Assembly: GCF_041381155.1 (NCBI RefSeq) | Contig: NC_091142.1 | Coordinates: 29,883,528 to 29,947,527, forward strand | Direction: 5' to 3' | Length of the DNA stretch: 64,000 bases | Source: Argopecten irradians | Lineage: Eukaryota | In this document: positions 12,982-61,287 of the stretch, in pieces | Layout of the letters: every line of letters begins with the position of its first letter | Position numbering within the stretch: position 1 is the first letter of the stretch | Made by a program: the position numbers and the translations under genes | Notes under the pieces: generated by a model | The model's database searches: none | The model's input: the letters and a program-made list of their open reading frames with translations, nothing else | What the model was told of the DNA's origin: nothing

Positions 12982-13574
12982 CTGGGAAGAAAAAGAGTCA
13001 GTTATAATTACATGTAATTACCATAAGTCATAATCATTTTCAAAGGAATTAACATAAAATTGAAAATATCAGAGTAATAAAGGTTCTAAACTTTAAACAT
13101 ACAAGTGGTCTAGAGGGCCTGTATCACTGACGTGGTTTATTCAGTAATTACCACAAAAAATATTTTACAATTTGAAAATAGCAAAAATTTACAATTTTGG
13201 CCTGCAGTTATGAAGTCTATTGTTGACAGACGACACGGTATTGCATAAGTATAGAGACTTATGAACATGAGACTCAGAAGAGATCTAGATTATTAACCAA
13301 GTAAACAGAATCCGACAGTTCAAAAATTTAGCAATCTGGCTGAGGTCGCAAGTGTTCAGGTTGTCAGGAGTACACTATAAATGTACATCTGGTGAGTTGA
13401 GCATATCAAACATATTAATCACAAATCACATGTATGTGAAGGAATATTGATGAAAATGTGGCAGTTTGTTTCTCTACGTTTACAGAAAACCATACATAAT
13501 AATGTAATATATGGTGATTTGTGGTAATTTGTGGTAATAAGTAATAATGAATTTTAGTGTCTGTGATCAGTTAC

Positions 13575-16500: not shown

Positions 16501-17943
16501 GTGAAAATTCAGTGTTGATTTATCCGTGAACTTGTTACCACACAGGTTACAGAGAAAAGGTTTGTAGTCAATGTTGATGGAGGCATGCCTTCTGAGGTTA
16601 GTCTTGATGTGGGTGCTGTACTTACAACCTTTACACTTGTAGGCTTTGTAGAATCCAGCGACGCGTCCACGATCTGTGTTCACCGAATCATCCAATGTGG
16701 AATTATCAGAAATATTCACTTCAGCATCACTTGGGTTTTCCTCATTCAATAACTTTTCACTTTTTTGATCAACCATAACAGCAGACTCCACTGTATTCAC
16801 TGTCTTTTCATCTTTCATTGAGAGATTTGAAGCATCGTTCATAGATTTAGTAACTGAAGTTAAGGGTTCTGATTTAATTTGTCCTTGACCTTTAGAATCC
16901 AAAACTGTCCTTGACCTTTGCCCTCTACCAGGTCGACCTGATTTCCTCTCTTCCGGTTGAATATCACATTCCTTTGGAGTTTTTGTTTCATTTTTCCCCT
17001 CATCACTTGCTGTCAGTTGTTCAGAAGCTTGTTGTTCTGTTTGTTTTTCAGATGTTTCACGATTTGTAACGTCCTTGTTCTGATCCAGTTTTAACTTATC
17101 AGTATCTAGCGGTTTGGACTCAGATTTTTCTTCTTCAACATTCTTTTCTTTGTCTGTACACTCTTCCTCCTGAATCACACTGTTTTGTTCGTCCTTTGGT
17201 TCTGTACTCTGTTTCAATTGTTCTGTGGTTGTTTTATCTGTAGCTGTTTCGTTTTCATCACCAGCTGTCTGTGATTGTATTTCAGATGTTTCATTTGGTA
17301 TTTTCATTTCCTCATTACTATCCTGTGCTGAAGCTGAGGTTTTTTCCTCTAAATTGTCTTCTTGAGAATCTTGCTTACATGCAGTTCCTTCTTGTAATTT
17401 TGAAGAATTCACATTTTTTGGTTTTGAAGAATTTATATCATCTGGTTTTGGACATTCTATATTGTCTAGTTTCAAAGATTCCACATCTTCAGGTTTTGAT
17501 AGCAAAATATCCTCTTGTTCATTACTACATGTTTCAGATTTGTCTACAGAAGTATTGCTTTGCTGGGAATTTTGATCATTTGAACAGTTTTCAGTCTTGT
17601 TTAAATGCGCCACACATGGTGGTGATTCTTTGGTTTCTGCTATGTTTTCCTCAGAATGGACCTTTGGATCTGTCCCAGTTACTGAGCAAGATTCATCCCC
17701 TGGTTTCTGGTTTTCACTCTGTTTTTGATCCTTTTCCTCCTCTTTGCTAGCACTTTCAGGCACTTTATCCTTACTTTCATCGACAGTCTTCATCTCTTTT
17801 TCTGCACCAGAGACGCTGCCTTGGTCAGTTTCAGGTTCCTCCATGGCTGAAGATTTAGCTTTCTCAGCAGGAGATTTCCCGTCAGTGATTGGTTCCTTGA
17901 CATCATCACCAGACTTTTCTACAGTTGAATCTGATGTTGCCAT
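13575..17943 (-). CDS. Large acidic low-complexity nuclear protein with several AT-hooks (GRP cores) and atypical C2H2 zinc fingers, coding exon 1 (about 1456 codons in one exon)
   Basis: 4.4-kb uninterrupted ORF. AT-hooks KSGRPGRGQRSR, RKRGRPPGRSRG, KRKRGRPRSDKK. C2H2 fingers YKCKGCKYSTHIKTNLRRHASIN, FLCNLCGNKFTDKSTLNFHNKKRH, IKCPLCEYQSKSINGVRLHAFWVHK, YTCTECSYFTLNRFEGLAHYKEEH, ARCPKCSFISTVRGVGRHLMMAH, WVCRECKFMSPSKTLTIQHARRNH. ATG at 17943 is preceded by an in-frame stop. Donor CCAG|gtaact at 13575/13574. Confidence 0.75.
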
Positions 17944-18187
17944 ATTCTAAAGGTTTCTCTAGATCTTTTTACTTGATTCCTCAAAGGTCATCTGTAAAAA
18001 TAAACCGATACAACAATTATGCTCAGAAAGGCTTTGCTCAAAATGCTTTATCATATTTTATACAATATTTGGTAAAATTGCATAACAAAAGAAAAATCTG
18101 AAACAAGATTGACAGGGGTTTTATTTTCTCTCATGCCTACAAGTGTAATACTGGCTGGTCTAGTGTAATACACTTATGTCGCATGAG

Positions 18188-24904: not shown

Positions 24905-26095
24905 GGAATATCTGTTACCTGTCGTAGAGGTCTTCATGTTTTGAATTGTGATAGCCAGAAATTGTTCAGTCTGCTCTTGAAAGAGTTGATGTTTTCAGCA
25001 TCGACTATATTATCTGGTAATGTGTTCCAACTGTCGATGACGCGTTGTGAAAAGTTGTATTTTCTAATATCCAGTCTACAGTTGCTCTTTAGTAAATTAT
25101 ATTTGTATTATCCAGCTCCTTAGTCCAAATATTTAAAAACATCAATGAGTTGAGTTACACAGGAGTGTCCTTTCCTAAAGCCATGTTGATGTTTGGTGAA
25201 TAGGTTATTTGCTTCCATATGTTTCATAATTCATCACGTATAATTTTTTCCATTACTTTAGATGTAACTGAAGTGAGGCTGATTGGTCTACAGTTGCTCG
25301 CTAAGTTTTTGGGAACTTTTTTATGGATGGCTGTGATATTTTTTTATGGATGGCTGTGATATTTTTTATGGATGGCTGTGATATTTGCTGTTTTCGAGAC
25401 ACATTCTTCATCCAATGATCTTTGGAAGATGGTGGTTAGTGGCTGTGATAAGATTTGAGATGTTTCATTTAAAATCTTAGGATGTATTCCATCGGGGCCT
25501 TGAGATTTGTTAGGCTTGGTGTTCATTAGCAGTTTCTCCACTGATTTTTGATCGATAATGATGTTCTCAAGACGAGATTGAATTGTTCTTTCTCTGAATT
25601 GCGGGATATTAACTGTATCTTCCTCGGTGAAAACACGGGTGAAAAGGTTATTCGATGCTGTTGCTATATATCGCGGTCACTGGTATACATGTTTCCTTCG
25701 TCATCTTTGATGTTACTGATATTTCCGGTGGTTTTGGTTTTAGACTGAACATATTTCCAGAAGGATTTACCTACTGTCCATTTTAACATTATCTGCTAGC
25801 TGTTTCTCATAGTCTCTTTTAGTTAGCTTTACTTCGAGACTTGCTAACCTTTTTGCCCGGGTGTAATTTTCCTTGTTTGTAGGATTCCCACCATGATTGT
25901 ACTTTTTCCCCATTTTCTTCTTTTCTCACGTATGGCATTCATACTAGCATTCGTCATCCATGGTGTTCTGAAGGTCCTATTCTTTCCTTTACACTCTGGT
26001 ATGTGATCATTTATTTCTTTGTGTATTATATCGATAAAGGTAGACCAGGATTCAGGTCTAGTAAAGTATCAAATGTACTTTCAGTGATTTCTTTG
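24905..26095 (-). mobile_element. 5'-truncated, internally deleted CR1/L2-type non-LTR retrotransposon (LINE) relic
   Basis: The - strand translation gives ...RTPWMTNAS..DYEKQLA... then KPNKSQGPDGIHPKILNE...ITAIHKK(V)PKNLASNCRPISLTSVTSKVMEKIIRDELMKHMEANNLFTKHQHGFRKGHSCVTQLI (RT domains 0-2). It then jumps to the C-terminal block FSQRVIDSWNTLPDNIVDAENINSFKSRLNNFW. A 27-bp unit (tttttatggatggctgtgatattttt) is triplicated at 25320-25385 inside the RT region. Confidence 0.6.
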
Positions 26096-31857: not shown

Positions 31858-32345
31858 ATTCCTCCTTTATTGTAAGCTTCCTTCATTAGCTTCCTTTTCC
31901 TCTAAGCTCCCTTCCCCTCTAAGCTCCCTTTCCTCTAAGCTCCTTTCCCCTCTAAGCTCCCTTGCTATCTAAGTTCCATTCTCCTCTAAGCTCCCTTTCC
32001 CTCTTAGCTCCTGTTTCACTTAACAGACCCCTTTCTCTCTAAGCTCCCTTCCTTTCTAAGCTCACTTCCTTTCTAAGCTCCCTTTCTCTCTAAACTCCAT
32101 TTCCCTCTTAGCTCCTGTTTCACTTAACAGACCCCTTCCCCTCTAAGCTTCCTTTCCGTTTAAGATTCTTTCCCCTCTAAGCCTCCTTACCATCTAAGCT
32201 CCCTTCCTCTCTAAGCTTCCTTCTCCTCTAAGCTCCCTTCCCCTTTAAGTTATCTTTGCCTCTAAGATCCCTTCTCCTCTAACTCCTCTTTCCCTAAACA
32301 CACCCTCCCTCTTTATGTGCCTCTTCCCTTGTAAGTTCCTGTCCC
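31858..32345. repeat. Pyrimidine-rich minisatellite in MVP intron 3 (16-18-bp unit CTCTAAGCTCCCTTYCC, about 28 copies) with a ~110-bp higher-order repeat
   Basis: Tandem units seen directly. cctcttagctcctgtttcacttaacagacccct recurs at about 31996 and about 32106. Confidence 0.85.
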
Positions 32346-36024: not shown

Positions 36025-36363
36025 GAATCCGAGCTGGAGAGACTGACCAGTGCTCGGGAGGCTGAACTTAAGTACATTCGTGAACAGAATGATATGGAGC
36101 TCAGCAAATCTAAAGAAATGTCCGCCATCGAAACGGAGAAGTTCAAGAACATGGTGGACGCTATCGGAGCCAGCACACTCCAGTCTATCGCTGTGTCTGG
36201 GCCAGAGATGCAGGTCAAGATGTTGACCGCCCTTGGACTGAAATCTACACTCATTACCGATGGCAGCAGTCCCATCAACCTGTTCAACACCGCCAATGGA
36301 TTGATTGGCGGTCAGCTGGTTCCATCTAAACGCCGTCATGCTGAATCCGATGAGGAGGATTAA
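36025..36363 (+). CDS. MVP: Major vault protein, terminal coding exon 9 ([21 protein letters not shown]...[41 protein letters not shown]...SDEED*)
   Basis: Acceptor catggttttcag|GAATCC and TAA at 36361-36363. [31 protein letters not shown] is the conserved MVP C-terminus. The total CDS is 2583 nt = 860 aa. Confidence 0.9.
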
Positions 36364-37042
36364 AGGGCAAACAACTTCAAGTTATCTGCCGCGGATTGAA
36401 GGGCAGATCACTCCTGTGTAATGGTCCGTGAACTAGAAGGGAGATAACTCATAATCATAGAGATTGTATTTTGGAAGTGTCTATGATGCATAGTAGAAGT
36501 GATTGAAAGTCTTGTGGTTGATTTATATTAGTTCTACATGTTGTGCTTTACAATCAAATATTTAGGTTGTATATACATCTGACATGTGACCATTTTACAT
36601 CCCAGAGATGGGAGTTATGGAGAACACTTCAGGTGATGGCCTTCAAATATTTATATCTTAATATCTGGGATCAAGGACGCTGAGGAACAAAAAAAATTAT
36701 TTCATATTAAATTATCGTTTCTTGTACATTTCATTACTGATGAAGAAAATGTATAATGATATTTATCAAACCCCATTCTTTGTGATTTCTTATGCATAAT
36801 TTAATATTTTCTATGATGATCTTTCTTTATGATTTTTACTGAGTTGTGAGTATTTTTTGTGCATTTCGAGGAATCCTTTATAATTATTCTGTATTCTTAT
36901 TGTATTTATATGCAAATTTTTTTTCATATCGTGTGACTACATTTGTTCTTTATCACTATAGTAACGTACTTAGGGTAAATGTAAAAGGGCGGTTATATTA
37001 CAAGTGCAATTAGTGATGAGAGTTATAATACATGTGATAGAC

Positions 37043-37829
37043 GAATGTAGTGTCATGTTCATACTTTATACAGAGGACTCCACATAATCGAATAACGGTT
37101 ATTCGAATATTTCGGTTATTTGCATAAAATTCTGTGGTCCCGATTTTTTTCCTTCTTTATCTTTGTTTTTCAACTCCGTGTATTTGCATAGACTTTTACA
37201 TGACCTCCGGTTATTTGAATAAAATATTTGGGAAATTCTAAAAATAAAATCGAATATTTTTCAATGTTGCAATATATTTTTAGCGAAATTCGCCGATATA
37301 TGTTTCAAGATACTTCGCTTTTACTAGAAATCATCCTGGTAACAGATTAACGTTATAGTATGGCTTGTTATTTTATGCATGAATCCGCAAAGGTATTCGA
37401 CGCTGTTACGATTTACATCAGCAGCGGTTGATCATAACTTTAGTATATTCACTGACTCAAACATCTAATTAAAGCATTTGCATTTTCAAATATGTTTATT
37501 TATTAACGTAACGTACCTTAGTTCGCGATCGGTTGGAGAAACCATGCTTCCTTACAACAATCGCCATTCATGAGTAGTCTCGTTCAACCAGAGTCTTGTT
37601 GACTACTACAGACATTTGCGTATCAAGCGTCTCGTTGAACGAGACATAAAAGCATGCAAAGTCGGCGTGCAATGACTACCGCAAGTTTCGTACAGTATGT
37701 AAGCTTAGGATACAAAAGATACTTGCTACGTTGTTTCATTGCTACTTGAATATGCATTAATTTCTGAAATGTTATCAAGCTATTCACCGTATAGATCAAC
37801 GAATGTAGTGTCATGTTCATACTTTATAC
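37043..37829. repeat. X-insert-X arrangement: a 30-bp direct repeat (acgaatgtagtgtcatgttcatactttata) flanks a ~722-bp insert that starts TA|CAGAGGACTCC
   Basis: Repeat copies at 37043-37072 and 37798-37827. The first 230 bp of the insert (37073-37300) is related to the Tc1-like MITE at 18389 (shared ggtccc..tcc.tctttatctttgttt and cgaataa blocks). Confidence 0.5.
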
Positions 37830-38155
37830 ATACATATATTTATACAATTTATAGTAAATCCCTTCATCTAGTGCTGGAATCTTTATTCTCTATTGTTAGA
37901 CTATTGACCTTCAAATGACGAATTGACACAGCAATATATTTGTTAACCTTGGTTCGCAGCTGAAGTGGAAAGGTTGCCATGGAAACCTAACTATCTTTTC
38001 TTTCATTTCCATACTGGTACAGAACAGCAACTAAATGTATATGTATAACGTTAACGTTTGCTTATAAGTCACAATTATTTATATACTGTATATAGCTGCT
38101 GATTGATATAATAAAAACCACACATGACAGTGCTAACGTTGTTTGTTTATGGTTG

Positions 38156-41100
38156 TGTGAAGTTGGCTCGATATACGACATTCGACATTCAACATTCAAA
38201 TATCGTTGGCCACCGACGGCCTTTTGAATGTTGTGCAGCTCGACATACGACATTCAACATTCGGAACCTATATATAACTGACAGACGAACGGACTTTTGA
38301 ATGTTGTGCAGCTCGACATACGACATTCAACATTCGGAACTTATAAATAACTGACAGACGAACGGACTTTTGAATGTTGTGCAGCTCGACATACGACATT
38401 CAACATTCGGAACTTATATATAACTGACAGACGAACGGACTTTTGAATGTTGTGCAGCTCGACATACGACATTCAACATTCGGAACATATATATATAACT
38501 GACAGACGAACGGACTTTTGAATGTTGTGCAGCTCGACATACGACATTCAACATTCGGAACTTATATATAACTGACAGACGAACGGACTTTTGAATGTTG
38601 TGCAGCTCGACATACGACATTCAACATTCGGAACTTATATATAACTGACAGACGAACGGACTTTTGAATGTTGTGCAGCTCAACATACGACATTCAACAT
38701 TCGGAACTTATGTATAACTGACTAACGAACGGACTTTTGAATGTTGTGCAGCTCGACATTCGACATTCAACATTCAGAACTTATGTATAACTGACAAACG
38801 AACGGACTTTTGAATGTTGCGCAGCTCGACATTCGACATTCAACATTCAAAACCAATAACTGGCCAACGACAACAGAATCTGAATGTTGCACAGCTCGAC
38901 ATACGACATTCAACATTCAGAACTTATGTATAACTGATAAACGAACGGACTTTTGAATGTTGTGCAGCTCGACATTCGACATTCAACATTCAGAACGTAT
39001 GTATAACTGACAAACGATCGGACTTTTGAATGTTGTGCAGCTCGACATACGACATTCAACATTCGGAACTTATATATAACTGACTAACGAACGGACTTTT
39101 GAATGTTGTGCAGCTCGACATTCGACATTCAACATTCAGAACGTATGTATAACTGACAAACGAACGGACTTTTGAATGTTGCGCAGCTCGACATACGACA
39201 TTCAACATTCGGAACTTATATATAACTTACAGACGAACGGACTTTTGAATGTTGTGCAGCTCGACATACGACATTCAACATTCGGAACTTATATATAACT
39301 GACAGACGAACGGACTTTTGAATGTTGTGCAGCTCAACATACGACATTCAACATTCGGAACTTATGTATAACTGACTAACGAACGGACTTTTGAATGTTG
39401 TGCAGCTCGACATACGACATTCAACTTTCGGAAGTTATATATAACTGACTAACGAACGGATTTTTGAATGTTGTGCAGCTCGACATACGACATTCAACAT
39501 TCGGAACTTATATATAACTGAAAGACGAACGGACTTTTGAATGTTGTGCAGCTCGACATACGACATTCAACTTTCGGAAGTTATATATAACTGACAGACG
39601 AACGGACTTTTGAATGTTGTGCAGCTCGACATACGACATTCAACATTCGGAACTTATATATAACTGACAGACGAACGGACTTTTGAATGTTGTGCAGCTC
39701 AACATACGACATTCAACATTCGGAATTTATGTATAACTGACTAACGAACGGACTTTTGAATGTTGTGCAGCTCGACATTCGACATTCAACATTCAGAACG
39801 TATGTATAACTGACAAACGAACGGACTTTTGAATGTTGCGCAGCTCGACATGCGACATTCAACATTCAAAAAACCAATAACTGGCCAACGACAACAGAAT
39901 CTGAATGTTGCACAGCTCGACATACGACATTCAACATTCAGAACTAATGTATAACTGATAAACGAACGGACTTTTGAATGTTGTGCAGCTCGACATACGA
40001 CATTCAACATTCGGAACTTATATATAACTGACTAACGAACGGACTTTTGAATGTTGTGCAGATCAACATACGACATTCAACATTCAGAACTTATGTATAA
40101 CTGATAAACGAACGGACTTTTGAATGTTGTGCAGCTCGACATACGACATTCAACATTCGGAATTTATATATAACTTACAGACGAACGGACTTTTGAATGT
40201 TGTGCAGCTCAACATACGACATTCAACATTCGGAACTTCTATATAACTGATAAACGAACGGACTTTTGAATGTTGTGCAGCTCGACATTCGACATTCAAC
40301 ATTCAGAACGTATGTATAACTGACAAACGAACGGACTTTTGAATGTTTCGCAGCTCGACATTCGACATTCAACATTCAAAAAACCAATCACTGGCCAACG
40401 ACAACAGAATCTGAATGTTGCACAGCTCGACATACGACATTCAACATTCAGAACTTATGTATAACTGATAAACGAACGGACTTTTGAATGTTGTGCAGCT
40501 CGACATTCGACATTCAACATTCAAAACCAATAACTGGCCAACGACAACAGAATCTGAATGTTGCACAGCTCGACATACGACATTCAACATTCAGAACTTA
40601 TGTATAACTGATAAACGAACGGACTTTTGAATGTTGTGCAGCTCGACATACGACATTCAACATTCGGAACTTATATATAACTGACAAACGAACGGACTTT
40701 TGAATGTTGTGCAGCTCGACATACGACATTCAACATTCGGAACTTATATATAACTGACTAACGAACGGACTTTTGAATGTTGTGCAGCTCGACATACGAC
40801 ATTCAACATTCAGAACTTATATATAACTGACAAACGAACGGACTTTTGAATGTTGCGCAGCTCGACATACGACATTCAACATTCAAAACCAATAACTGGC
40901 CAACGACAACAGAATCTGAATGTTGCGCAGCTCAACATACGACATTCAACATTCGAAACTTATACATAACTAACTAATGAACGGACTTTTGAATGTTGTG
41001 CAGCTCGACATATAATAATCAACATTCAAGCTTGATCGGAATTTTGAATGTCGTGTTGCTCGACTTACGACATTTAACATTGAAAACATATATAGATAGC

Positions 41101-41410
41101 CAACAGGAACGGACTTTTGTATGTCGTACAGCTCAACATACGACATTCAACATGCCGAATTTGATTATTGTTCAGTTCCACATACGACATTCAACATTCA
41201 AATTTTATATATATGACAAACGAACAGAGTTTTAAATGTTTTGCATATCGATATTCAACATTTAACGTACACAAACTATACCTGACCTATGAGCGGAATT
41301 TTAAATGGTGTTTAGCTTGACATTCAACACGTTATTTTCATTTTGACGTTTTATGTTTCGACATTTGACAGTTAACATTTAGAATGTGACTGTTGAAATC
41401 AAATGTCGTG
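38156..41410 (+). repeat. Satellite array A: ~73-bp monomer, about 40 clean copies plus a degenerate inner tail (41050-41410)
   Basis: The period is 73 bp (acagacgaac recurs at 38281 and 38354). Monomer: gacgaacggacttttgaatgttgtgcagctcgacatacgacattcaacattcggaacttatatataactgaca. A subvariant unit carries aaaaccaataactggccaacgacaacagaatctgaatgttgcacagctcgac. Confidence 0.95.
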
Positions 41411-43239
41411 TTTTATATGTATAACGGAATCTTTCTCCAACACAATTTCGAAGATTGTTTTCTTCTTTATTTTGTGTGTTAGCTGATTTTTACCAGCTCA
41501 CATAGGCGCAATGAAGATGGATATAGATAGATGTGAGACAATACGCCAAAAACATGAGATGGCAAAACCAGACACCAAATTAGCAACAGGAATACCACTT
41601 CGTCGTCTTCTTACCTAGAGTTTGTCGCGTTGTCACTATATCTTTTTCTTATCGCGTAATCATATATCATATTGTCGCCTTGGCGCTCCTGTGATTGTGC
41701 AAGAATGCGACCTTACGACAAAGCGACAATGCGCTGAATGTTAAATGTTGTAACAACAGTAATTATGGTATAATTTGTATCTAATTATTTGGGATTCGTA
41801 TTAGTACATACTTATGATAGAAAAAAATCAGTTAATGACCGAAGAGATATAAGATATTGATGGTGTGAAATTTAGCATTTGTTTTTGAAGGTAGCACCGG
41901 TCGTGTATGTGGCCTGCTATGAAAATTATTAAAAGTTGTCAGAAATACATCAGGGCCGTTTCTGTAGAATATCAAACTATGAAGAAATGTCTTATTTTTT
42001 TCAGTATGCATATCACGACCAACATCTTGAAATGCGTATCATCATGCTATATATTCTCCATTGAATGGTACTGCATGGACTTCCAACAGCTTTATGACAC
42101 CAAATCGATTATCCTTTCAAAGAGTCAAATCTCACGAGAAATTGCTATTTATTGTAACAGTGATTATATGCAGGTGTGCCTCTGTGCAGGTCTCCGAAGA
42201 ATTTAGATTTTTATTCTTAATTAATAGACTACTGTGATCTTAAATTTAGATAAATTACACTTTTGAGAAAGGAATGACAAAGACTAAACGTTAGGTTAAG
42301 AGGATCGAGACACCTCCAAGTCAGCACGATGCATATTTATTGTGTTGTTCGGTATTCCTCATATATCTATTTTATACATTTTACAGAACCTGTACATCAT
42401 GTTTGGTGATCATAAACTTAATCACCATATAATTACTGGTATAAATATCACCTAAACCAATGTTCTTGAAGAAAGAAAAATGTTGATCAGTGTCAGTGGC
42501 TTTAGTGCATAATTTTCTAGTGATGTAAGTGGTATGAGGTTTATATACAGAGATCTATTTGTTCAAATGTAAATCAATTTTATGCAAGAATTGTTGGAAC
42601 GAAATTATCCAGTAAAACATGTCTCTTAACTTAACAAATATGTATATATGACAGTGATTTTCAAACTCATCTGACTTATTTCAAGCATTAGTAGCAAATA
42701 CTAATTTCGGTTTTTGAATTCCAACATGCGAAAGGCAGGGGCACAACAACAGAATTGTTGAATACTCACTTGAATATTGTTTTGGTTTGCGTGTGTATAT
42801 TGCTTCATATTGTGTTCGTATGCAAAAGTATTGCATGAAGCTTAGGAATGTGTTCACAGAAGAGAGTGTTGCCTCCGTGAAGTTGATTCCACTTCCTTAT
42901 TCCATTACTTATTCGATTCCCTGATTTCTTATTCGATTTCCTATTTACTTATTCGACTCCAAGGTACTTATTAACATCATAAATGGTTTAAAATGCATTG
43001 TATGTATTCTGATGCACTATCTTATACTTTGATTCCAACTAACCGGATTAGATGGTGTTCAGAGCCAAGAGGCACCACAAGATGGAGAGGCTGGTGCGGC
43101 TTTCCATCAAGATTTTGTCTTACATAGACGGTTTATCTATATAGGGTATGTGCCCGAGGGTTGGATATCTGAGACAGAGCAAGCCAACATACATGACAGA
43201 TATGCCCTTACCAGGGCATTGAGAGTTTTTGCTTCATTG

Positions 43240-44900
43240 TTTGTCAATATCGTGTTGGCAAGGCGTTTTTTGTTTTGAAAAAAACCCGCTTACTTGAGGA
43301 ACCTTGTCGTTCCCGTTTGGTGACTGCCCCTTTGTATGGGTCCAACCTTTTTCGAGGGACTCTTTCTTCTATTCCAAAGGATTTGAAGGAGGCCTTGGTA
43401 ACTTCTGCCCTTCGTTTGAAGATAATGCGGGAAGGCCAGTACCTCACAGGGGTCAGCGCCTCCTGATAAGATGGCTGGAACTTCAGCTCCCCAGTCTGCT
43501 GTGCAGCCGAAATCGAAGCCTTAGTTGAAGGGCAACAAGAGAAAGGTTGATAAAGATAAAACCCCTCCTGGGGGCAATACGAAGAGTTCCTGACTCTTTC
43601 TCCCTTTCCTTTGTCGTTCCAGACGAAAGTTCTTTTCTGCAGGGCTCCGCTCCTCCAATTGTAGATTCTGGTTCTTTGAGGAATAGATTTCAGGAGAGGA
43701 AACGGATTTCTGCATTTCAGGGGAATAGATGTTTACATCTATTTCGACGATTCTTTCATGCTCCAGCTAGTGTGGTATTCTTTAGAATAGAACACCCGTC
43801 TGGTCCTGAAAGTCGGCTTCATTCCTTCCAGGGAGAAGACCGAGGTTTCCCCTTCTGAAGACTTTGTCTTCCTGGGAAACTGTTTCCACACGGTTCAGAG
43901 TATTGCCTTTCCACCGTAGGAGAAGATCGAGAAGGCTAAAGATCTTGTTTTGACCTCCATCGGCTCGTCCCACGTCTAGGTTCCTTGATTTCTGGGTTAC
44001 CTCAATGCTCTGGCAGATTTAGTCCCTCTAGGGAGACGTTATATCAGACCTCCCCAGATGTTCTTCCTTGCGAACTGGGTCCCTGCCATCAGGGAATTAG
44101 CTTCCTCTCAACCAGTCGGAGAAGGATTTATTCGGTGTTAAATATAAAAGACAATGTTCTATGGGGGATTCAGTTGTCCACGACAGCTTTCACGAATGAC
44201 CTTGTTCACGGATGCGTAAATGAAAGGGCGGAGGGCTTACTACCTGGGTGGCCATCGCCAGTCCTTTGTGCCCTCGCTATCTGTATTCACTGTTTTAGTC
44301 AAGCATCTTCCGGACAGGTTGACTGTTCTAGCAGATACTCTTTCAAGGCGCCGCCAGCCGGTTCTGTCAGAATGGCAGCTAAATCCCTCGATCTTCGCGG
44401 GCATTTTTCAGATGTGGAACAGGCCTCACATAGACCATTTCGCCAAAATTTCCTGAACAACTAGTTGCCAACCTTTGTCTATCCGGTGGTAACAGACCAA
44501 ATAATTGTGGACGCACTGTATCTGGATTGGGACGGATGCATTATTATGCTTCCCTTCCATATAACCAGGTATGCAGGGTTCTACATTAGCTTTGGGAGGA
44601 TTATTGCTCTCCTTCTGATATTGCCCCTTTGGGTGAGACAACTCTGATTTCCGGAGCTCTTGTAGTTTTTGGTAGATGTTCCTCTAGCTCTCCCACCCAA
44701 ACCAATATCCTGCGCCAGTCACGGTCCAGGAGTATGCATTCAAGTCCCGAGAACCTCCACCTTCACACAGCGGAAGCTATCTCAAGACGCCTCGCTCAGG
44801 CAGGTTTTTCTTCGGACGTGTCACCTATCACCACCCGATCAATTATGTCTTCCTCTTCTGCGTCTACCAGTCACGAAGATTTTCTGTGACTGGTGAATCG
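43240..44900 (+). mobile_element. Degenerate DIRS-like (tyrosine-recombinase-type) retroelement relic with RNase H C-terminal motifs
   Basis: The + strand frames give ...HLPDRLTVLADTLSRRRQPVLSEWQLNPSIFAGIFQMWNRPHIDHFA, which matches the ADALSR...EW.L.P..F..I...WG.P.IDLFA block. Further downstream VDALYLDWDGCIIMLPFHI matches DAF..W......Y.FPPF.LI. The frames are broken by stops and shifts, the GC content is higher than in the flanks, and no intact ORF exists. Confidence 0.45.
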
Positions 44901-46708
44901 GTAGAAGGATGGATCCGGCCAAGGCCTCTGTCCAGCTCATTGCTGATTTCCTTCTCTTTTTGTTTAGATAATGCAATTTATCGCAGAACTATTGTCATGA
45001 TAGACCGGAGGTAGCATCATCCGCCTCTTTGTCTGCCTTTATTGAGGGGAGGGGAGGGGGTAGTTCAGGCTGGAAATGTATTACTGAAAGAAAATTGAGG
45101 CTTTTGCTATGTAAAACCAATTTTCATGATGTAATATTTATCATAACTTTATGGAGTCCCATCCTTCTCTTTCCTCCCCTTTCCTCCCCAGCCATTTTGC
45201 CCTTGTGATACTTTATAAGCTCTTAATATGGAAGTAAAGGTTAAATAGATCATTTCGATGCTTAATAATGCATTTTGAACAATTTGTGATACCCATTAGT
45301 ACCTACAAAACGAATAAGTAATTTGTCATGTCTGATCTCGGTCGCCTTAGTTTCAAAGAGACGAAACATGAAATGGACGACAATCATGGCAAAATAAATG
45401 ACGAACTTGATGAAAATAAGGAACCAGAACTGTTTTGAGTTTGTAATAGCGTGTGTGGACTCTAACTGGTCCTTGGCCTCTCAAATTCAGTAAGTTACAC
45501 AAAAAATATATCTTAGTTACACTATTTTCTAGTTTGGAACTGATTCAGCAGTACCAGGTATTGCAATTATGGATTCAGTTATCATGAAGCAAATCAAAAT
45601 ATTTTTTCAACTATCTATTTAGCAATATTGAATACCCATCCTTTGGGGATGCATTGATAAAATATGAGAGATATCCATTCCTTACATTCAGATAAGTCGT
45701 TTATATCCAAATAACCTGTTTGAATTCTTGTGGTCCGATTTCTTGATCCCCTGCTTAGTCAATGCCATGATACACATGATGTCATTCAAATCACAACACC
45801 TTCGGTCTGCTACATATTATAGATTAGACTATATTCATTCTTAGCGGTCAGAGAAGAGGTACTTTCTAATATAGACAAGTTGGCCAAATTTAACCCTGAC
45901 ACTTTTACCCAAGGAGTATCAGGCAACCATTCTGGGAGGCTATGTATGAAGAATGACATACAATATGTATATTCACCCCTAGCCGAGCTCTGTCGATTTC
46001 ATCATTACAAAAAGCCCACCAGTTCCTCCACAATGTTAAAATTTAGTTGAACTGGTACATATAAACTTAGACTTAGATATAAACATTGTACATTGTGAAT
46101 CAGAATGGGTTATTACAAGCTCAATAACACTTAATGTTGATTGATGAATTGAAAATGTCAAAATGCAAAATATTAAAACAAAATCCTGCTGATAAGACGA
46201 TGACATTGATTGAATGAAGAATTACCAAAGTCGAGCTGCACAAATTTGAAAACATAGATGGGTCACAAGATACTTTTGATACCTAACGTTACACTAGCGT
46301 GACGTCGAACGGCGTCAAATACGGACAAGGGTTTAAATAAAAACATGTCACATAAACAAATGTCTAATATAGAAAACACAAAATTAATGTGATATTTATC
46401 TAATCCTTATAATATGAGCTATAGGACCATATGCATAAACTATATGATTATATACATTTGTATATTGTGTTCGTGTCTGCCAATATTTCCATTCCGATTG
46501 AATTGTGGATTCCTGTAATGTACGTTGTTGAAACTTCTCTCATGAAATCTCGCGAGCTTTTCGATATGTAATAATCCTGTCGCCTATAAATTAATTAAAC
46601 GAACAAAACAATATCCATACGCATACATAAGATACGGAAGCCTACACTATAGTGTGTTTAATACATTGAAGGAAGGTAACTGATTGGAGAATGTTTATTG
46701 TGGAATCT

Positions 46709-49700
46709 CGAACTGCAAAACATGTCGTATGTCGAGCTGTGCAACATTCCGATTCTGTTGCCGTTGGCCAGTTATTGGTTTTGAATGTTGAATGTCGAAT
46801 GTCGAGCTGCACAACATTCAAAAGTCCGTTCGTTTATCAGTTATACATAAGTTCTGAATGTTGAATGTCGAATGTCGAGCTGCGCAACATTCAAAAGTCC
46901 GTTCGTTTGTCAGTTATACATACGTTCTGAATGATGAATGTCGAATGTCGAGCTGCACATCATTCAAAAGTCCGTTCGTTTATCGGTTATACATACGTTC
47001 TGAATGTTGAATGTCGAATGTCGAGCTGCGCAACATTCAAAAGTCCGCTCAGTGGTCAGTTATACATAAGTTTTGAATGTTGAATGTCGAATTTCGAGCT
47101 GCACAACATTCAAAAGTCCGTTCGTTTGTCACTTAAATATATATAAGTTCCGAATGTTGAATGTCGTATGTCGAGCTGCACAACATTCAAAAGTCCGTTC
47201 GTTTATCAGTTATATATAAGTTCCGAATGTTGAATGTCGTATGTTGAGTTGCACAACATTCAAAAGTCCGTTCGTCAGTCAGTTATATACAAGTTCCGAA
47301 TGTTGAATGTCGAATGTCGAGCTGCACAACATTTAAAAGTCCGTTCGTTTATCAGTTATACATAAGTTCTGAATGTTGAATGTCGAATGTCGAGCTGTGC
47401 AACATTCAGATTCTTTTGTCGTTGGCCAGTTATTGGTTTTGAATGTTGAATGTCGAATGTCGAGCTGCACAACATTCAAAAGTCCATTCGTTTATCAATT
47501 ATACATCAGTTCTGAATGTTGAATGTCGAATGTCGAGCTGCGCAACATCCAAAAGTCCGTTCGTTTGTCACTTATACATACGTTCTGAATGTTGAATGTC
47601 GTATGTCGAGCTGTGCAACATTCAGATTCTGTTGTCGTTGGCCAGTTATTGGTTTTGAATGTTGAATGTCGAATGTCGAGCTGCACAACATTTAAAAGTC
47701 CGTTCGTTTATCAGTTATACATAAGTTCTGAATGTTGAATGTCGAATGTCGAGCTGCGCAACATTCAAAAGTCCGTTCGTTTGTCAGTTATACATACGTT
47801 CTGAATGTTGAATGTCGAATGTCGAGCTGCACAACATTCAAAAGTCCGTTCGTTTATCAGTTATACATAAGTTCTGAATGTTGAATGTCGAATGTCGAGC
47901 TGCGCAACATTCAAAAGTCCGTTCAGTGGTCAGTTATACATAAGTTTTGAATGTTGAATGTCGAATGTCGAGCTGCACAACATTCAAAAGTCCGTTCGTT
48001 TGTCACTTAAATATATATAAGTTCCGAATGTTGAATGTCGTATGTCGAGCTGCACAACATTCAAAAGTCCGTTCGTCTGTCAGTTATATATAAGTTCCGA
48101 ATGTTGAATGTCGTATGTCGAGCTGCACAACATTCAAAAGTCCGTTCGTCTGTCAGTTATATATAAGTTCCGAATGTTGAATGTCGTATGTCGAGCTGCA
48201 CAACATTCAAAAGTCCGTTCGTCTGTCAGTTATATATAGGTTCCGAATGTTGAATGTCGAATGTCGAGCTGCACAACATTCAAAAGTCCGTTCGTTTATC
48301 AGTTATACATCAGTTCTGAATGTTGAATGTCGAATGTCGAGCTGCGCAACATCCAAAAGTCCGTTCGTTTGTCACTTATACATACGTTCTGAATGTTGAA
48401 TGTCGAATGTCGAGCTGCACAACATTCAAAAGTTCGTTCGTTAGTCAGTTATACATAAGTTCCGAATGTTGAATGTCGTATGTTGAGCTGCACAACATTC
48501 AAAAGTCCGTTCGTCTGTCAGTTATATATAAGTTCCGAATGTTGAATGTCGTATGTCGAGCTGCACAACATTCAAAAGTCCGTTCGTCTGTAAGTTATAT
48601 ATAAGTTCCGAATGTTGAATGTCGTATGTCGAGCTGTACAACATTCAAAAGTCCGTTCATTTGTCAGTTATATATAAGTTCCAAATGTTGAATGTCGCAT
48701 GTCGAGCTGCGCAACATTCAAATTGTTGTCGTTGGCCAGTTACTGGTTTTGAATGTTGAATGTCGTATGTCGAGCTGCGCAACATTCAAAAGTCCGTTCG
48801 TTTGTCAGTTATACATACTTCTGAATGTTGAATGTCGAATGTCGAGCTGCACAACATTCAAAAGTCCGTTCGTTGGTCAGTTATATATAAGTTCCGAATG
48901 TTGAATGTCGTATGTTGAGTTGCACAACATTCAAACGTCCGTTCGTCAGTCAGTTATATACAAGTTCCGAATGTTGAATGTCGAATGTCGAGCTGCACAA
49001 CATTCAAAAGTCCGTTGGTTAGTCAGTTATATATAAGTTCCGAATGTTTGAATGTCGAATGTCGAGCTGCGCAACATTCAAAAGTCCGTTCGTTTATCAG
49101 TTATACATAAGTTCTGAATGTTGAATGTCGTATGTCGAGCTGCGCAACATTCAGATTCTGTTGTCGTTGGTCAGTTATTGGTTTTGAATGTTGAATGTCG
49201 TATGTCGAGCTGCGCAACATTCAAAAGTCCGTTCGTTTATCAGTTATACATAAGTTCTGAATGTTGAATGTCGTATGTCGAGCTGCGCAACATTCAGATT
49301 CTGTTGTCGTTGGCCAGTTATTGGTTTTGAATGTTGAATGTCGAATGTCGAGCTGCACAACATTCAAAAGTCCGTTCGTTTATCAGTTATACATAAGTTC
49401 TGAATGTTGAATGTCGAATGTCGAGCTGCGCAACATTCAAAAGTCCGTTCGTTTGTCAGTTATACATACGTTCTGAATGTTGAATGTCGAATGTCGAGCT
49501 GCACAACATTCAAAAGTCCGTTCGTTAGTCAGTTATACATAAGTTCCGAATGTTGAATGTCGTATGTTGAGCTGCACAACATTCAAAAGTCCGTTCGTCT
49601 GTCAGTTATATATAAGTTCCGAATGTTGAATGTCGTATGTCGAGCTGCACAACATTCAAAAGTCCGTTCGTCGGTAAGTTACATGTATATATAAGTTCCG

Positions 49701-50822
49701 AATGTTGAATGTCGTATGTCGAGCTGCACAACATTCAAAAGTCCGTCCGTTTGTCAGTTATATATAAGTTCCGAATGTTGAATGTCGTATGTCGAGCTGC
49801 GCAACATTCAAAAGTCCGTTCGTTTGTCAATTATACATACGTTCTGAATGTTGAATGTCGAATGTCGAGCTGCACAACATTCAAAAGTCCGTTCGTTAGT
49901 CAGTTATATATAAGTTCCGAATGTTGAATGTCGTATGTCGAGCTGCACAACATTCAAAAGTCCGTTCGTTTGTCAGTTATATATAAGTTCTGAATGTTGA
50001 ATGTCGAATGTCGAGCTGCACAACATTCAAAAGTCCGTTCGTTTATCAGTTATACATAAGTTCTGAATGTTGAATGTCGTATGTCGAGCTGCGCAACATT
50101 CAGATTCTGTTGTCGTTGGCCAGTTATTGGTTTTGAATGTTGAATGTCGTATGTCGAGCTGCGCAACATTCAAAAGTCCGTTCGTTTGTCAGTTATACAT
50201 AAGTTCTGAATGTTGAATGTCGAATGTCGAGCTGCACAACATTCAAAAGTCCGTTCGTTAGTCAGTTATACATAAGTTCTGAATGTTGAATGTCGTATGT
50301 CGAGCTGCACAACATTCAAAAGTCCGTTCGTCTGTAAGTTATATATAAGTTCCGAATGTTGAATGTCGTATGTCGAGCTGCACAACATTCAAAAGTCCGT
50401 TCGTCTGTCAGTTATATATAAGTTCCGAATGTTGAATGTCGTATGTCGAGCTGCACAACATTCAAAAGTCCGTTCGTCTGTCAGTTATATATAAGTTCCG
50501 AATGAATGTTGAATGTCGTATGTCGAGCTGCACAACATTCAAAAGTCCGTTCGTCTGTCAGTTATATATAAGTTCCGAATGTTGAATGTCGTATGTCGAG
50601 CTGCACAACATTCAAAAGTCTGTTCGTCTGTCAGTTATATATAAGTTCCGAATGTTGAATGTCGTATGTCGAGCTGCACAACATTCAAAAGTCCGTTCGT
50701 CTGTCAGTTATATATAGGTTCCGAATGTTGAATGTCGTATGTCGAGCTGCACACCATTCAAAAGGCCGTCGGTGGCCAACGATATTTGAATGTTGAATGT
50801 CGAATGTCGTATATCGAGCCAA
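46709..50822 (-). repeat. Satellite array B: the same 73-bp monomer in reverse-complement orientation, about 56 copies
   Basis: Units read gaatgttgaatgtcgtatgtcgagctgcacaacattcaaaagtccgttcgtctgtcagttatatataagttcc, the reverse complement of the array A monomer. The subvariant gattctgttgtcgttggccagttattggttttgaatg also appears as a reverse complement. The outer junction 50760-50835 is the exact reverse complement of 38140-38215. Confidence 0.95.
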
Positions 50823-51490
50823 CTTCACACAACGTTGTTTGTTTATGGGTTGGACTTTCTATATTTTTTTATATTGTTTTTGTACCAGCTTATTGTATAT
50901 TATCTGTGATAGATTTCACCATAGATTACCTTTATTCACCAAAAACAAACTTTTGGTATACTATGTATAGCTGTATTCTCTTCACAACTTGTCCATTTCA
51001 CTCCAGCTGAGAGTGTGGAAATGGATTCAGTGTTAACAATTTTTTCTTGTTTTTGTGAATCCTATTAAACTTGATACAAAATATTTTACATTTGTTGTTT
51101 ATTCGCTTTCTACATGAAGACGAGTCTAACCTCCATATCTCAAACTCATATAACTTGAAGAATGCATGTTTTAATGTAGTGTGTTGGTCTATCTTTACTT
51201 AAAACTTTCATTCAACAAAATCTGACTTGGAGACGACAAACCTGCCATAGCGACCACTTCTGTATAAGGACCAACTACTTATTAAGACCACTTTTGTAGG
51301 GTCCCAAATGACTTCAACACAATTTAACTCTAGTAGTATGTATAGACCACTTGGCTTACTTTTCTCTTGGCTGATCTTTATAGACAGGTTTAGTATATTC
51401 AAGTTAACTAATTTGAGTTCTTGGATAACTTGATGTGTTACCAAAGTCTTGTCAACGTTTGTGGTTTGACTGCAGTGTTTAAGGTGTCTT

Positions 51491-58835: not shown

Positions 58836-59038
58836 TTAACTCTTGAAGGTATGAACAACTCGCACCACATACTGTCGACAGATTGGACACTCGTTGAGAC
58901 GACGGCCACATTGTGTGCAGGAGATCATGTGACCACATTCAAGAAGTACACAGTCAATAGCAGCATCCATACAGATTTTACAAATGTCATCTTCTCCCTT
59001 TTCTCCTCCAGGGTTTGTTTCTCCATTCACGTCTGCAG
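58836..59038 (-). CDS. RNF34: RNF34/RFFL (CARP)-like E3 ubiquitin ligase, terminal coding exon (C3HC4 RING)
   Basis: (A)[66 protein letters not shown] compares with human RNF34 [48 protein letters not shown]. Acceptor tatttttttgatag|CT on the - strand. TAA at 58836-58838. Confidence 0.85.
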
Positions 59039-59797
59039 CTATCAAAAAAATATTCATTTTAATATGTACATTGTATAGGTTAAATTTTTTTTTAATGATA
59101 ACTGTCAGTTGGTGGCAATAATTGGGACAGAGGAATGTTTTCAGTCTTTAAAGTTCCCTAAAGTATCCTTTGGGTCAGAGAATTTTTGTTTACAGTCTTT
59201 CAAGTACCCCTAAATAAAAGACAGAGCACAAAAAAAAATCCTTCATTTGTCTAGGGAGCATTTGTAGCTCAGGTTGTTATGGGAAAGTGAGGATAACGGT
59301 GAAAAATACAGCTGAATTTTTATATCCTTGTTAGCAAAAGGGCATATCATTTAAACAAATTTCAACTAATATTTAACTAAATTGGATATTTTTTTTTATT
59401 TGAAAACTTTTTCTTTCCTATTCCATTTCCCCCTTTTACTTAAATTTGGTAGAGAATACATGTACTTACTTTCTGGTGAATCTATATCCTTAACTGTAAT
59501 GTAAAAGTAAATAATGAATGATAAGTAAATAATAATAGGTAAAAATTATAGACATGGTTGGCAAAATCACTAAAATATCATCCCTTAAACTTAAACTAAT
59601 CCGCTATACAGTACATTTTGTATTTCATTGATCAATCTTATACAATCTGGGAAACAGCATCAAAAACATAACAAAAACATTATTTTGTGAACTAAAGTCA
59701 TCTTCTGTTACATTAAAAGCCATTGTTTGAAATATGAACAAACTACATTTTTCCCCACTGGTCCTGAACCACCTATCTATTGTGGTAATTGCCATAC

Positions 59798-59993
59798 CTT
59801 TTTGTTCGTTGGCTTTGTGTTCCTTCCAAAGTCTCTTCACTCTGTCGACTAGCTCCGGTTTTTCACAGCACCCTTTGTAATTAACGAAGTTTGTAACTAA
59901 TACTTCTTTTAGCTGCCGGACTGTGAGGCTGTCTACATCCTCTAGTGTTTTTATTTCCCCCAGGTTCATCCTCACACGAGCTGTAGCCGTCTC
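59798..59993 (-). CDS. RNF34: RNF34/RFFL-like, coding exon 4 ([65 protein letters not shown]-)
   Basis: Compare human [42 protein letters not shown]. Donor AAAAG|gtatgg, phase 1. The acceptor is either gcgccccag|GAG (59993) or, 9 nt upstream, ctacag|GCG (60002). Both are in frame. Confidence 0.7.
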
Positions 59994-60256
59994 CTGGGGC
60001 GCCTGTAGTTTTAATTCGGTTCAAATAAAATTATTCAAATACCAACCTTGTGGTTTTCAATAATTGTGAAAGAATGCAATCAAAATGTGATTATTCTTTC
60101 CACTGCCCTATCTTAAGACTGTTAGCTAATATCCGATGGTCTTTTAAGTAAGCATTTTGAAGTTTCATCGTTATTGAACATTATTAAGCAATATAGGACA
60201 ATCCTTGTGTGTGGAATCATAGATTATATGCTTCCAAAAGGTAAGAAAATAAGCAC

Positions 60257-60493
60257 CTCCTCCTCTTCTTCCTCCCCAAGTATTTCCTGCCTAAGTATGG
60301 CTCGTCTCATCTCTTCTTCTTGCCTCTGTCTCAGCCTTTCCTGCCGATCAGCCTCGGTCTCTGGCCCCGGGGGTGGGCCTGGCTCCTGTGGACTAGTGTT
60401 TTGTGATCCCTGGGGTTGGTTATTGTGGTCCTGAGTGCCACCACTACTGACAGTACTACCAGACAAACTGCTAGGCTGTCTAGATAAAGACTC
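60257..60493 (-). CDS. RNF34: RNF34/RFFL-like, coding exon 3 (Ser/Gln-rich then acidic linker ESLSRQPSSLSGSTVSSGGTQDHNNQPQG...RQEILGEEEEEE)
   Basis: Acceptor ttttctacaatgttcag|GAGTCT and donor GAGGAG|gtgctt (a weak donor). 237 nt, phase 0-0. It corresponds to the low-complexity acidic linker of RNF34. Confidence 0.55.
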
Positions 60494-60999
60494 CTGAACA
60501 TTGTAGAAAAGATTTCATTAATTTATACATATATATACAGCAAAATATTCATTCAGTGTAAATCCATTTCCCATCTTTATCTATTCTGTGTGTGATGAAA
60601 CAGGCTACCAAGTATACACTTATAATTATTGTAAGGACTTTATGTGGTCTACTTTTAGAGAAGTTGGTGCTTAAATATATATTAAATAGCATTATTTTGT
60701 CTATAGTGCTACAATTGGTTCAATGGACAGATCTGAAACTTGTTAACAAAATATAAAACATTACATATTTCTTGGCGTTAACTTTCTTATTCTCCACCAA
60801 AGTAATTTTAATGGGAAAAGGGAAGGGGCACCTTTCTTAACGTAGTGCCCTTAACAGGTCAGACTGAATCTGAATTCATAGTCCAATCTAATCGCAAAAT
60901 TATGCAAAAATTTGTATTATTACAAAAATAAAGTGCATAAAGAATATATCCTAAATGCACACTAGTACTGCAGTGATCAATTGCTAATCTAAAACTCAC

Positions 61000-61287
61000 C
61001 AAATCTTCAACTTCTGCTGACTCCTGAGGGGATTTAGCAAAGTTGATAAACAGCAGATCTATGAGGTCATGCTTCTCCTTGCAAGTGCTGGTTGAGACAT
61101 TTCGTTTATTGAGCAAGATTCGTAATTCCTTGACCTTCCACTTCATTAAGTCTGAGCGGGTAAACTTGCCTGACATTAGCACTTTACAAGTATTACATTG
61201 TCTATATGTCATTCTGTTATTGTCTGGATCTCGGTATCGATGTACACAACTCGAGCAGAAAATCCTATCGCAATATTTACATATTTT
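61000..61287 (-). CDS. RNF34: RNF34/RFFL-like, coding exon 2 (second half of the FYVE-like zinc finger plus the helical region KICKYCDRIFCSSCVHRYRDPDNNRMTYRQCNTCKVLMSGKF...KEKHDLIDLLFINFAKSPQESAEVEDL)
   Basis: Compare human HVCCDCKKDFCSVCSV...RRCSTCHLL...LKVKDLRQYLILRNIPIDTCREKEDLVDLVL. Acceptor tcttttcttctctag|AAAATA and donor GATTTG|gtgagt. 288 nt. Confidence 0.75.

Follow-up and report, generated by a model that had tools for sequence, protein, structure and literature searches.

A 12.68-kb insertion with inverted arrays of a 73-bp repeat in the MVP 3' untranslated region of Argopecten irradians is probably a foldback-type transposon

We analyzed a 64,000-nt stretch of the genome of the bay scallop Argopecten irradians (NCBI RefSeq assembly GCF_041381155.1, contig NC_091142.1, positions 29,883,528 to 29,947,527, forward strand; hereafter "the window"), in which two arrays of a 73-bp repeat lie in opposite orientations downstream of the gene for major vault protein (MVP). 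The structure at 38153-50832 is a discrete insertion: its termini are perfect inverted copies of each other, and it is flanked by an exact target-site duplication (TSD). It is probably a single non-autonomous foldback-type class II transposon, bounded by terminal inverted repeats (TIRs), that was inserted as a unit in the 3' untranslated region (3'UTR) of MVP. We assign it to the foldback type because it has perfect termini, a TSD, an empty site, unequal arms made of tandem repeats and a non-coding middle domain.

Results

Two unequal arms of 73-bp monomers share perfect termini

Using Tandem Repeats Finder, we located 38.6 copies of the 73-bp monomer on the + strand at 38216-41027 (89% matches) and 54.7 copies of its reverse complement at 46778-50769 (88% matches). 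A scan for a 37-nt core of the monomer, allowing at most 3 mismatches, gave 38 occurrences on the + strand (38226-40954) and 54 on the - strand (46783-50759). None was found elsewhere in the 64-kb window, where 0 matches are expected by chance. The two opposed 73-bp arrays around a 5.3-kb spacer that had been described in a first-pass annotation of the letters are therefore real, and so are the mirrored outer junctions that it reported: the ends are perfectly complementary for 78 nt, with the first mismatch at offset 78, and the only two occurrences of the terminal 27-mer TTGTGTGAAGTTGGCTCGATATACGAC are one that starts at 38153 (+) and one that ends at 50832 (-). We also recovered the 18-mer said to abut both outer ends in direct orientation (AACGTTGTTTGTTTATGG, + strand, at 38135 and 50831), and the left end lies 1.79 kb past the MVP stop codon, in agreement with the earlier estimate of about 1.8 kb. 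Only the limits needed adjustment. The structure had been placed at 38156-50822; its true boundaries are slightly wider, 38153-50832, which gives an element of 12,680 bp with the perfect TIRs TTGTGTGAAG...CTTCACACAA.

Each arm opens with a 73-bp terminal unit, on the left at 38153-38225 (+; TTGTGTGAAGTTGGCTCGATATACGACATTCGACATTCAACATTCAAATATCG...) and on the right at 50760-50832 (-), where it is the reverse complement of 38153-38225. This unit is itself a diverged monomer with CGACATT-like 7-bp sub-repeats. The left array (38226-41410, +) is well formed to 41027 and then degenerates, fading gradually to ~41410, while the right array (46709-50759, -) holds the monomer in reverse orientation and stops abruptly near 46709. 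A weak monomer-like trace is seen at 46210-46251, inside the middle domain. Together the arms fill most of the 12.68-kb element (3.26 kb on the left and 4.12 kb on the right), and they differ in length: the right arm is ~0.8 kb longer, with ~55 units as compared to ~42.

Gapped alignment of the two arms showed 98.4-99.6% identity across the outer ~1.25 kb. Deeper inside, the identity was 82-96%, with many indels of whole monomers and differences in monomer count. Two monomer types make up the arrays, a common one with a 36-nt linker and a variant with a 33-nt linker (AAAACCAATAACTGGCCAACGACAACAGAATCT); 5 units of the left arm and 6-7 of the right are of the variant type. The succession of variants is identical between the arms for the outer 14-15 monomers and arm-specific beyond them. 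Each monomer also contains an 8-bp hairpin (GAATGTTG/CAACATTC); its stability was only marginally above that of shuffled sequences (z = -1.97), and we make no structural claim for it.

The element is bracketed by a target-site duplication of 14-18 bp

The filled allele has the layout X-D-E-D-Y, where E is the element and D the duplicated target. With the TIRs taken from their first base (TTGTGTG...CACACAA), D is the 16-bp sequence CGTTGTTTGTTTATGG, found at 38137-38152 (+), within a maximal direct repeat spanning 38135-38152, and again at 50833-50848 (+). The boundary can be shifted over bases that the element ends and the flank have in common, so that the TSD may be counted as anything from 14 bp (with the TIR then starting GTTGTGTG...) up to 18 bp.

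Transcripts and orthologous loci carry the empty site

Two independent MVP mRNA contigs, L001 (SRR19746228) and L002 (SRR19746226), lack the element. L001 aligns to 37799-38155 and then straight to 50831-51081, and the overlap between these segments is the direct repeat. Both contigs read ...GACAGTGCTAACGTTGTTTGTTTATGGGTTGGACTTTCT..., that is, left flank, one repeat copy and right flank; each has one copy of CGTTGTTTGTTTATGG, and both match the predicted empty site exactly. The 31-mer across the empty junction is GCTAACGTTGTTTGTTTATGGGTTGGACTTT. Because the 18-nt repeat is shorter than the k-mer of the Logan assemblies, which we take to be 31, the empty junction must exist in the reads and a jump by the assembler is unlikely. 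We also considered splicing as the source of the gap in the transcripts and rejected it, as the repeat offers no position for a GT-AG or AT-AC pair. A single-nucleotide polymorphism 10 bp right of the insertion site distinguishes L001 from the window, so that L001 represents another haplotype. The 12.68-kb insertion is very probably polymorphic for presence and absence.

In Pecten maximus, the match to window positions 50839-51096 sits 1.1 kb past the MVP stop codon, and the alignment runs unbroken across the junction (ACATGACAGTGCTGAC...TTGTTTACTGGTTTGAAG), with no 73-bp repeat within 10 kb. The same compact arrangement was observed in Mizuhopecten yessoensis and Ylistrum balloti, with no matches there to the monomer or to the interior. 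The right-flank sequence follows the MVP stop codon by 1.1-2 kb in all three species. Taken with the empty site in the transcripts, these orthologues indicate that the whole 12.68 kb is an insertion that took place in the Argopecten lineage. One caveat is that the empty site of A. irradians itself is known from cDNA (considered below); despite it, the three genomic orthologues show, by sequence comparison, that the empty state is the ancestral one.

The middle domain is non-coding and holds an old retroelement fragment

The 5.3-kb middle domain (41411-46708) contains no long or intact open reading frame (ORF). Rfam and tRNA scans of 36-53 kb returned no family and no tRNA. Outside 43.3-45.0 kb there were no Pfam domains in the ORF pieces or in the six frames of 41.38-43.3 and 45.0-46.73 kb, and no transposase domain was found in these same frames.

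At 43704-45049 (+), phmmer and tblastn identified a decayed, frameshifted pol remnant comprising the C-terminal half of a reverse transcriptase (RT), RNase H and the start of a tyrosine-recombinase-like part. With phmmer run exhaustively, 611 matches were significant, the best being A. irradians XP_069109293.1 (E=2e-29); the top homologues are uncharacterized proteins of A. irradians, M. yessoensis and Mytilus galloprovincialis. RVT_1 and RT_RNaseH domains were found in the homologues, and the C-terminus of the best one has sub-threshold matches to the phage-integrase SAM-like family (Phage_int_SAM) and, by eye, the R...HxxR...Y motifs of tyrosine recombinases. Residues 103-599 of this protein map onto the window in five pieces at ~60% identity (tblastn). 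A word-indexed protein search with the reconstructed fragment found no match, although phmmer did find homologues, and an exact look-up of the A. irradians DIRS-like protein found nothing on record. The remnant is an old, truncated DIRS/Ngaro-like fragment, a passenger or a nested remnant, and the element is not driven by it.

A related locus of M. yessoensis has only the pol segment in common with the element and nothing in common with the 73-bp repeat. At this locus (NEDP02003051.1; L007 1159-3968 and 11271-11491), tandem and dispersed repeats of ~150-160 bp flank a DIRS-like gene, and they are unrelated to the 73-bp monomer. Around the pol fragment in the window, a weak 55-bp inverted match (42945-42999 versus 45267-45321, 76%) was judged non-significant.

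Alternative origins of the structure

One possibility is that a pre-formed palindromic DNA, for instance extrachromosomal DNA or a hairpin produced by a 73-bp satellite locus elsewhere, was captured at a staggered break or at nicks made by the endonuclease of a long interspersed nuclear element (LINE). Such a DNA would have no transposase of its own, and the 16-bp duplication would be the fill-in of the stagger. In the literature that we searched, TSDs of 14-17 bp are typical of target-primed insertion by LINEs and short interspersed nuclear elements (SINEs), and a 726-bp insert 1 kb upstream (37073-37798), which has a 32-bp direct repeat and no TIR, hints at long-stagger events in this region. 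We nevertheless consider capture unlikely. The insert begins and ends precisely where a perfect inverted repeat begins and ends, as recognition by a transposase predicts, and it shows neither a poly(A) or simple-repeat tail nor any 5' truncation or filler DNA. If capture had proceeded through RNA, a 12.7-kb molecule with self-complementary arms of 3-4 kb would have been a poor template for reverse transcription.

Another possibility, raised in the first-pass annotation, is an artefact of assembly, caused by a long read that was chimeric or palindromic or by a join that collapsed across satellite DNA. This could account for the absence of the element from the transcript contigs, but it is very unlikely. 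Palindromic reads give symmetric arms that meet at one point, whereas the arms here are unequal (3.3 versus 4.1 kb), diverged (82-99% identical) and separated by a 5.3-kb unique spacer. Furthermore, an exact 16-bp target duplication brackets the insert, and a misjoin would not create one.

The first-pass annotation favored a local inverted duplication, in which a pre-existing array would have been copied by fold-back or template switching with its breakpoint on the palindromic hexamer AACGTT. The outer 1.2 kb are indeed mirror-symmetric and AACGTT does span the right junction; however, the hexamer arises there from the 2-nt overlap, the element's terminal AA (..CAA), followed by the duplicated CGTT. 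The empty allele and the three orthologous loci lack the left array, the spacer and the right array together and keep one 16-mer. In addition, an inverted duplication that extended past the end of the array would have yielded the reverse complement of the 18-mer, whereas a direct copy is seen, and the order of the monomers differs in the inner arms. We therefore hold a local duplication to be highly improbable. What stands of the earlier proposal is that both arrays stem from one event and are not independent. The direct repeat is a TSD, and the empty site is found in transcripts and in three other genera.

Finally, it is extremely unlikely that the structure derives from a tyrosine-recombinase retrotransposon of the DIRS type by amplification of its inverted terminal repeats, which DIRS1-type elements do have, into arrays: the interior does hold a DIRS/Ngaro-like pol fragment, but this is decayed, 1.35 kb of 5.3 kb, truncated at both ends and with many frameshifts, whereas such an element should have intact or recognizable genes for gag, RT/RNase H and a tyrosine recombinase between its terminal repeats; DIRS elements, to our knowledge, make no TSD, and one is present; and the M. 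yessoensis relative has nothing of the 73-bp repeat.

The host gene and its neighborhood

The concatenated MVP exons of the window matched "major vault protein-like [Argopecten irradians]" at 95% identity, a value lowered by crude exon joins, and three Logan RNA-seq contigs that encode this protein are 99-100% identical to the window exons at the nucleotide level. The gene spans from ~26.67 kb to its stop codon at 36358-36360. Its 3'UTR occupies 36361-38152 (+) upstream of the insertion, where L001 and L002 align at 98-99.7%, and continues past it at 50849-51081 (+), as read in L001. In uninterrupted alleles the insertion site is ~1.0 kb past the stop codon, within the transcribed 3'UTR.

The insertion site and its TSD follow a canonical AATAAA (38110-38115) by 22 nt, and the GT-richness of the duplicated target recalls a downstream element. 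The transposon may thus sit right at the MVP poly(A) site; yet L001 extends 235 nt further.

A second insert is present in the same 3'UTR. It is 726 bp long (37073-37798) and lies between exact 32-bp direct repeats, ACGAATGTAGTGTCATGTTCATACTTTATACA (37041-37072 and 37799-37830). L001 and L002 have a single copy of the 32-mer and are without the insert; as 32 nt just exceeds the 31-mer, a short-cut in the assembly of the RNA contigs is possible for this 726-bp gap. The insert lacks a TIR, a poly(A) stretch and any ORF of at least 60 aa, and the window holds no other copy of it.

Convergent with MVP is a gene for an RNF34/RFFL (rififylin)-like E3 ligase at 58839-61287 (-), with SAP_RNF34_RFFL, RNF34L-like_3rd and C3HC4 RING domains. 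On the other side, at 13570-17946 (-), an uninterrupted ORF of 1459 aa contains low-complexity acidic/basic stretches and several sub-threshold matches to C2H2/C2HC zinc fingers; it is probably a single-exon zinc-finger gene. Three genes are thus found within 64 kb, and the locus is ordinary gene-rich DNA, not heterochromatin. The first-pass annotation had likened the structure to heterochromatic or centromere-proximal DNA, and this comparison fails: pericentromeric satellites form long homogeneous arrays in gene-poor DNA, whereas the arrays here are 3-4 kb long and lie inside the transcribed MVP 3'UTR, between MVP and the convergent RNF34/RFFL-like gene.

Two further features were observed. 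A CT-rich tandem repeat in an MVP intron (31888-32295) has a 17-bp unit and a 104-bp higher-order unit, with ~24 copies. A 110-aa open frame at 25347-25676 (-) contains ...KSQGPDGIHPKILNE... and has no match in Pfam; it may resemble the N-terminal part of LINE reverse transcriptases.

Discussion

Foldback elements have long TIRs with a terminal domain and a tandem-repeat domain, a variable non-coding middle and few complete copies; most copies are non-autonomous and are moved by a transposase acting in trans (PMC4079207). The Drosophila elements FB, Galileo (of the P superfamily) and Tetris (D. virilis) and the sea-urchin TU elements resemble the scallop element in their very long TIRs, which fill most of the element and in which tandem repeats follow a short terminal domain, their unequal arms, their variable non-coding middle and their TSD, and in bringing satellite-like transposon repeats into euchromatin (PMC4079207). 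The scallop element differs from them in its unrelated 73-bp unit and sequence and in its bivalve host. As a foldback transposon, it belongs to a type already described; the host is new, and the target duplication is longer than is typical.

Several observations weigh against this assignment. First, the TSD of 14-18 bp far exceeds the 7-10 bp of described foldback elements (8-10 bp in Tetris/FB; PMC4079207) and falls outside what is expected of the type, whose TSD length corresponds to transposases of the Mutator or P type. Second, a single copy was examined, and it does not by itself establish the mobility of a family or its superfamily. Our searches, which covered the window, metagenome contigs, the literature and an ORF look-up, revealed no second insertion, autonomous copy or transposase: the monomer had 0 matches in metagenome contigs, its sequence strings had 0 matches in full-text literature, an exact look-up of the 43-aa ORF that it encodes, as a route to other copies, found nothing on record, and the literature held nothing specific on a foldback element or a 73-bp satellite in scallops or other bivalves. 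Third, since the empty site in A. irradians is known from cDNA, a reverse transcriptase that switched templates between the two direct repeats, where the giant hairpin has its base, could mimic it. Finally, the lengths of the arrays may be imprecise, as in any assembly, including those from long reads.

The length of the TSD is informative in its own right. In the literature searched, duplications of 14-17 bp are tied to LINE/SINE target-primed insertion, to prokaryotic casposons and to IS481EU elements; no metazoan DNA transposon with a TSD of 14-17 bp is known there, and IS481EU is the only eukaryotic DNA-transposon group so described. Because the integrating enzyme dictates the length of the TSD, a 16-bp duplication on an element with perfect TIRs points to a type of transposase that is undescribed in animals.

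IS481EU elements of the parabasalids Trichomonas and Histomonas have a TSD of ~15-16 bp (or 4 or 25) and TGT...ACA termini (PMC10045372). The scallop TSD of 14-18 bp, most parsimoniously 16, agrees with theirs, and the scallop ends TTGTG...CACAA contain TGT/ACA one base in, a near but offset match. On the other hand, IS481EU elements have TIRs of <50 bp and an IS481-like DDE transposase and are known from parabasalids only, whereas the scallop TIRs are kilobases long and no such transposase was found in the interior. For these two reasons, we do not regard the scallop element as a member of IS481EU. It could be speculated that its lineage is an undescribed animal DNA transposon that makes ~16-bp staggered cuts, either IS481EU-like or a new superfamily, and that the element is the non-autonomous foldback derivative of this transposon, seeding 73-bp arrays in euchromatin and presence/absence variation in genes; we put this forward as a tentative suggestion, with the odds against it.

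Among bivalves, the satellite-carrying Helentron derivatives of oysters are similar in that short, dispersed satellite-like arrays in gene-rich DNA are borne by a mobile element (PMC7492417). The scallop element is unlike them: its two arrays are inverted, its TIRs are perfect and its TSD measures 16 bp, whereas Helentrons are not known to generate a TSD and bear their repeats in a single orientation.

Were the element mobilized as a foldback transposon, a transposase supplied in trans would bind the terminal unit and probably also the reiterated monomers, each of which contains CGACATT-type 7-bp sub-repeats and an 8-bp hairpin. Multiple binding sites for a THAP domain reportedly occur in the long TIRs of Galileo, according to a report cited in the Tetris paper. 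The transposase would pair both ends and join them to target phosphates staggered by ~16 bp (~1.5 helical turns), and gap repair would then produce the target duplication. The arms may subsequently lengthen or shorten through unequal exchange or slippage, and we propose this as the reason why the inner monomers differ in order and number while the outer 14-15 remain in register and ~99% identical.

These results turn what appeared to be a palindromic megastructure beside a housekeeping gene into an interpretable recent, and probably polymorphic, transposon insertion in an aquaculture species. Its interest would rise if other copies confirm the ~16-bp TSD and reveal the transposase. For the host gene, transcripts that read through the element in the filled allele would fold into a double-stranded RNA hairpin of 3-4 kb, which could affect the fate of the MVP mRNA or yield small RNAs. 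More generally, the element offers a clean example of a mobile element that delivers satellite-like arrays into euchromatin.

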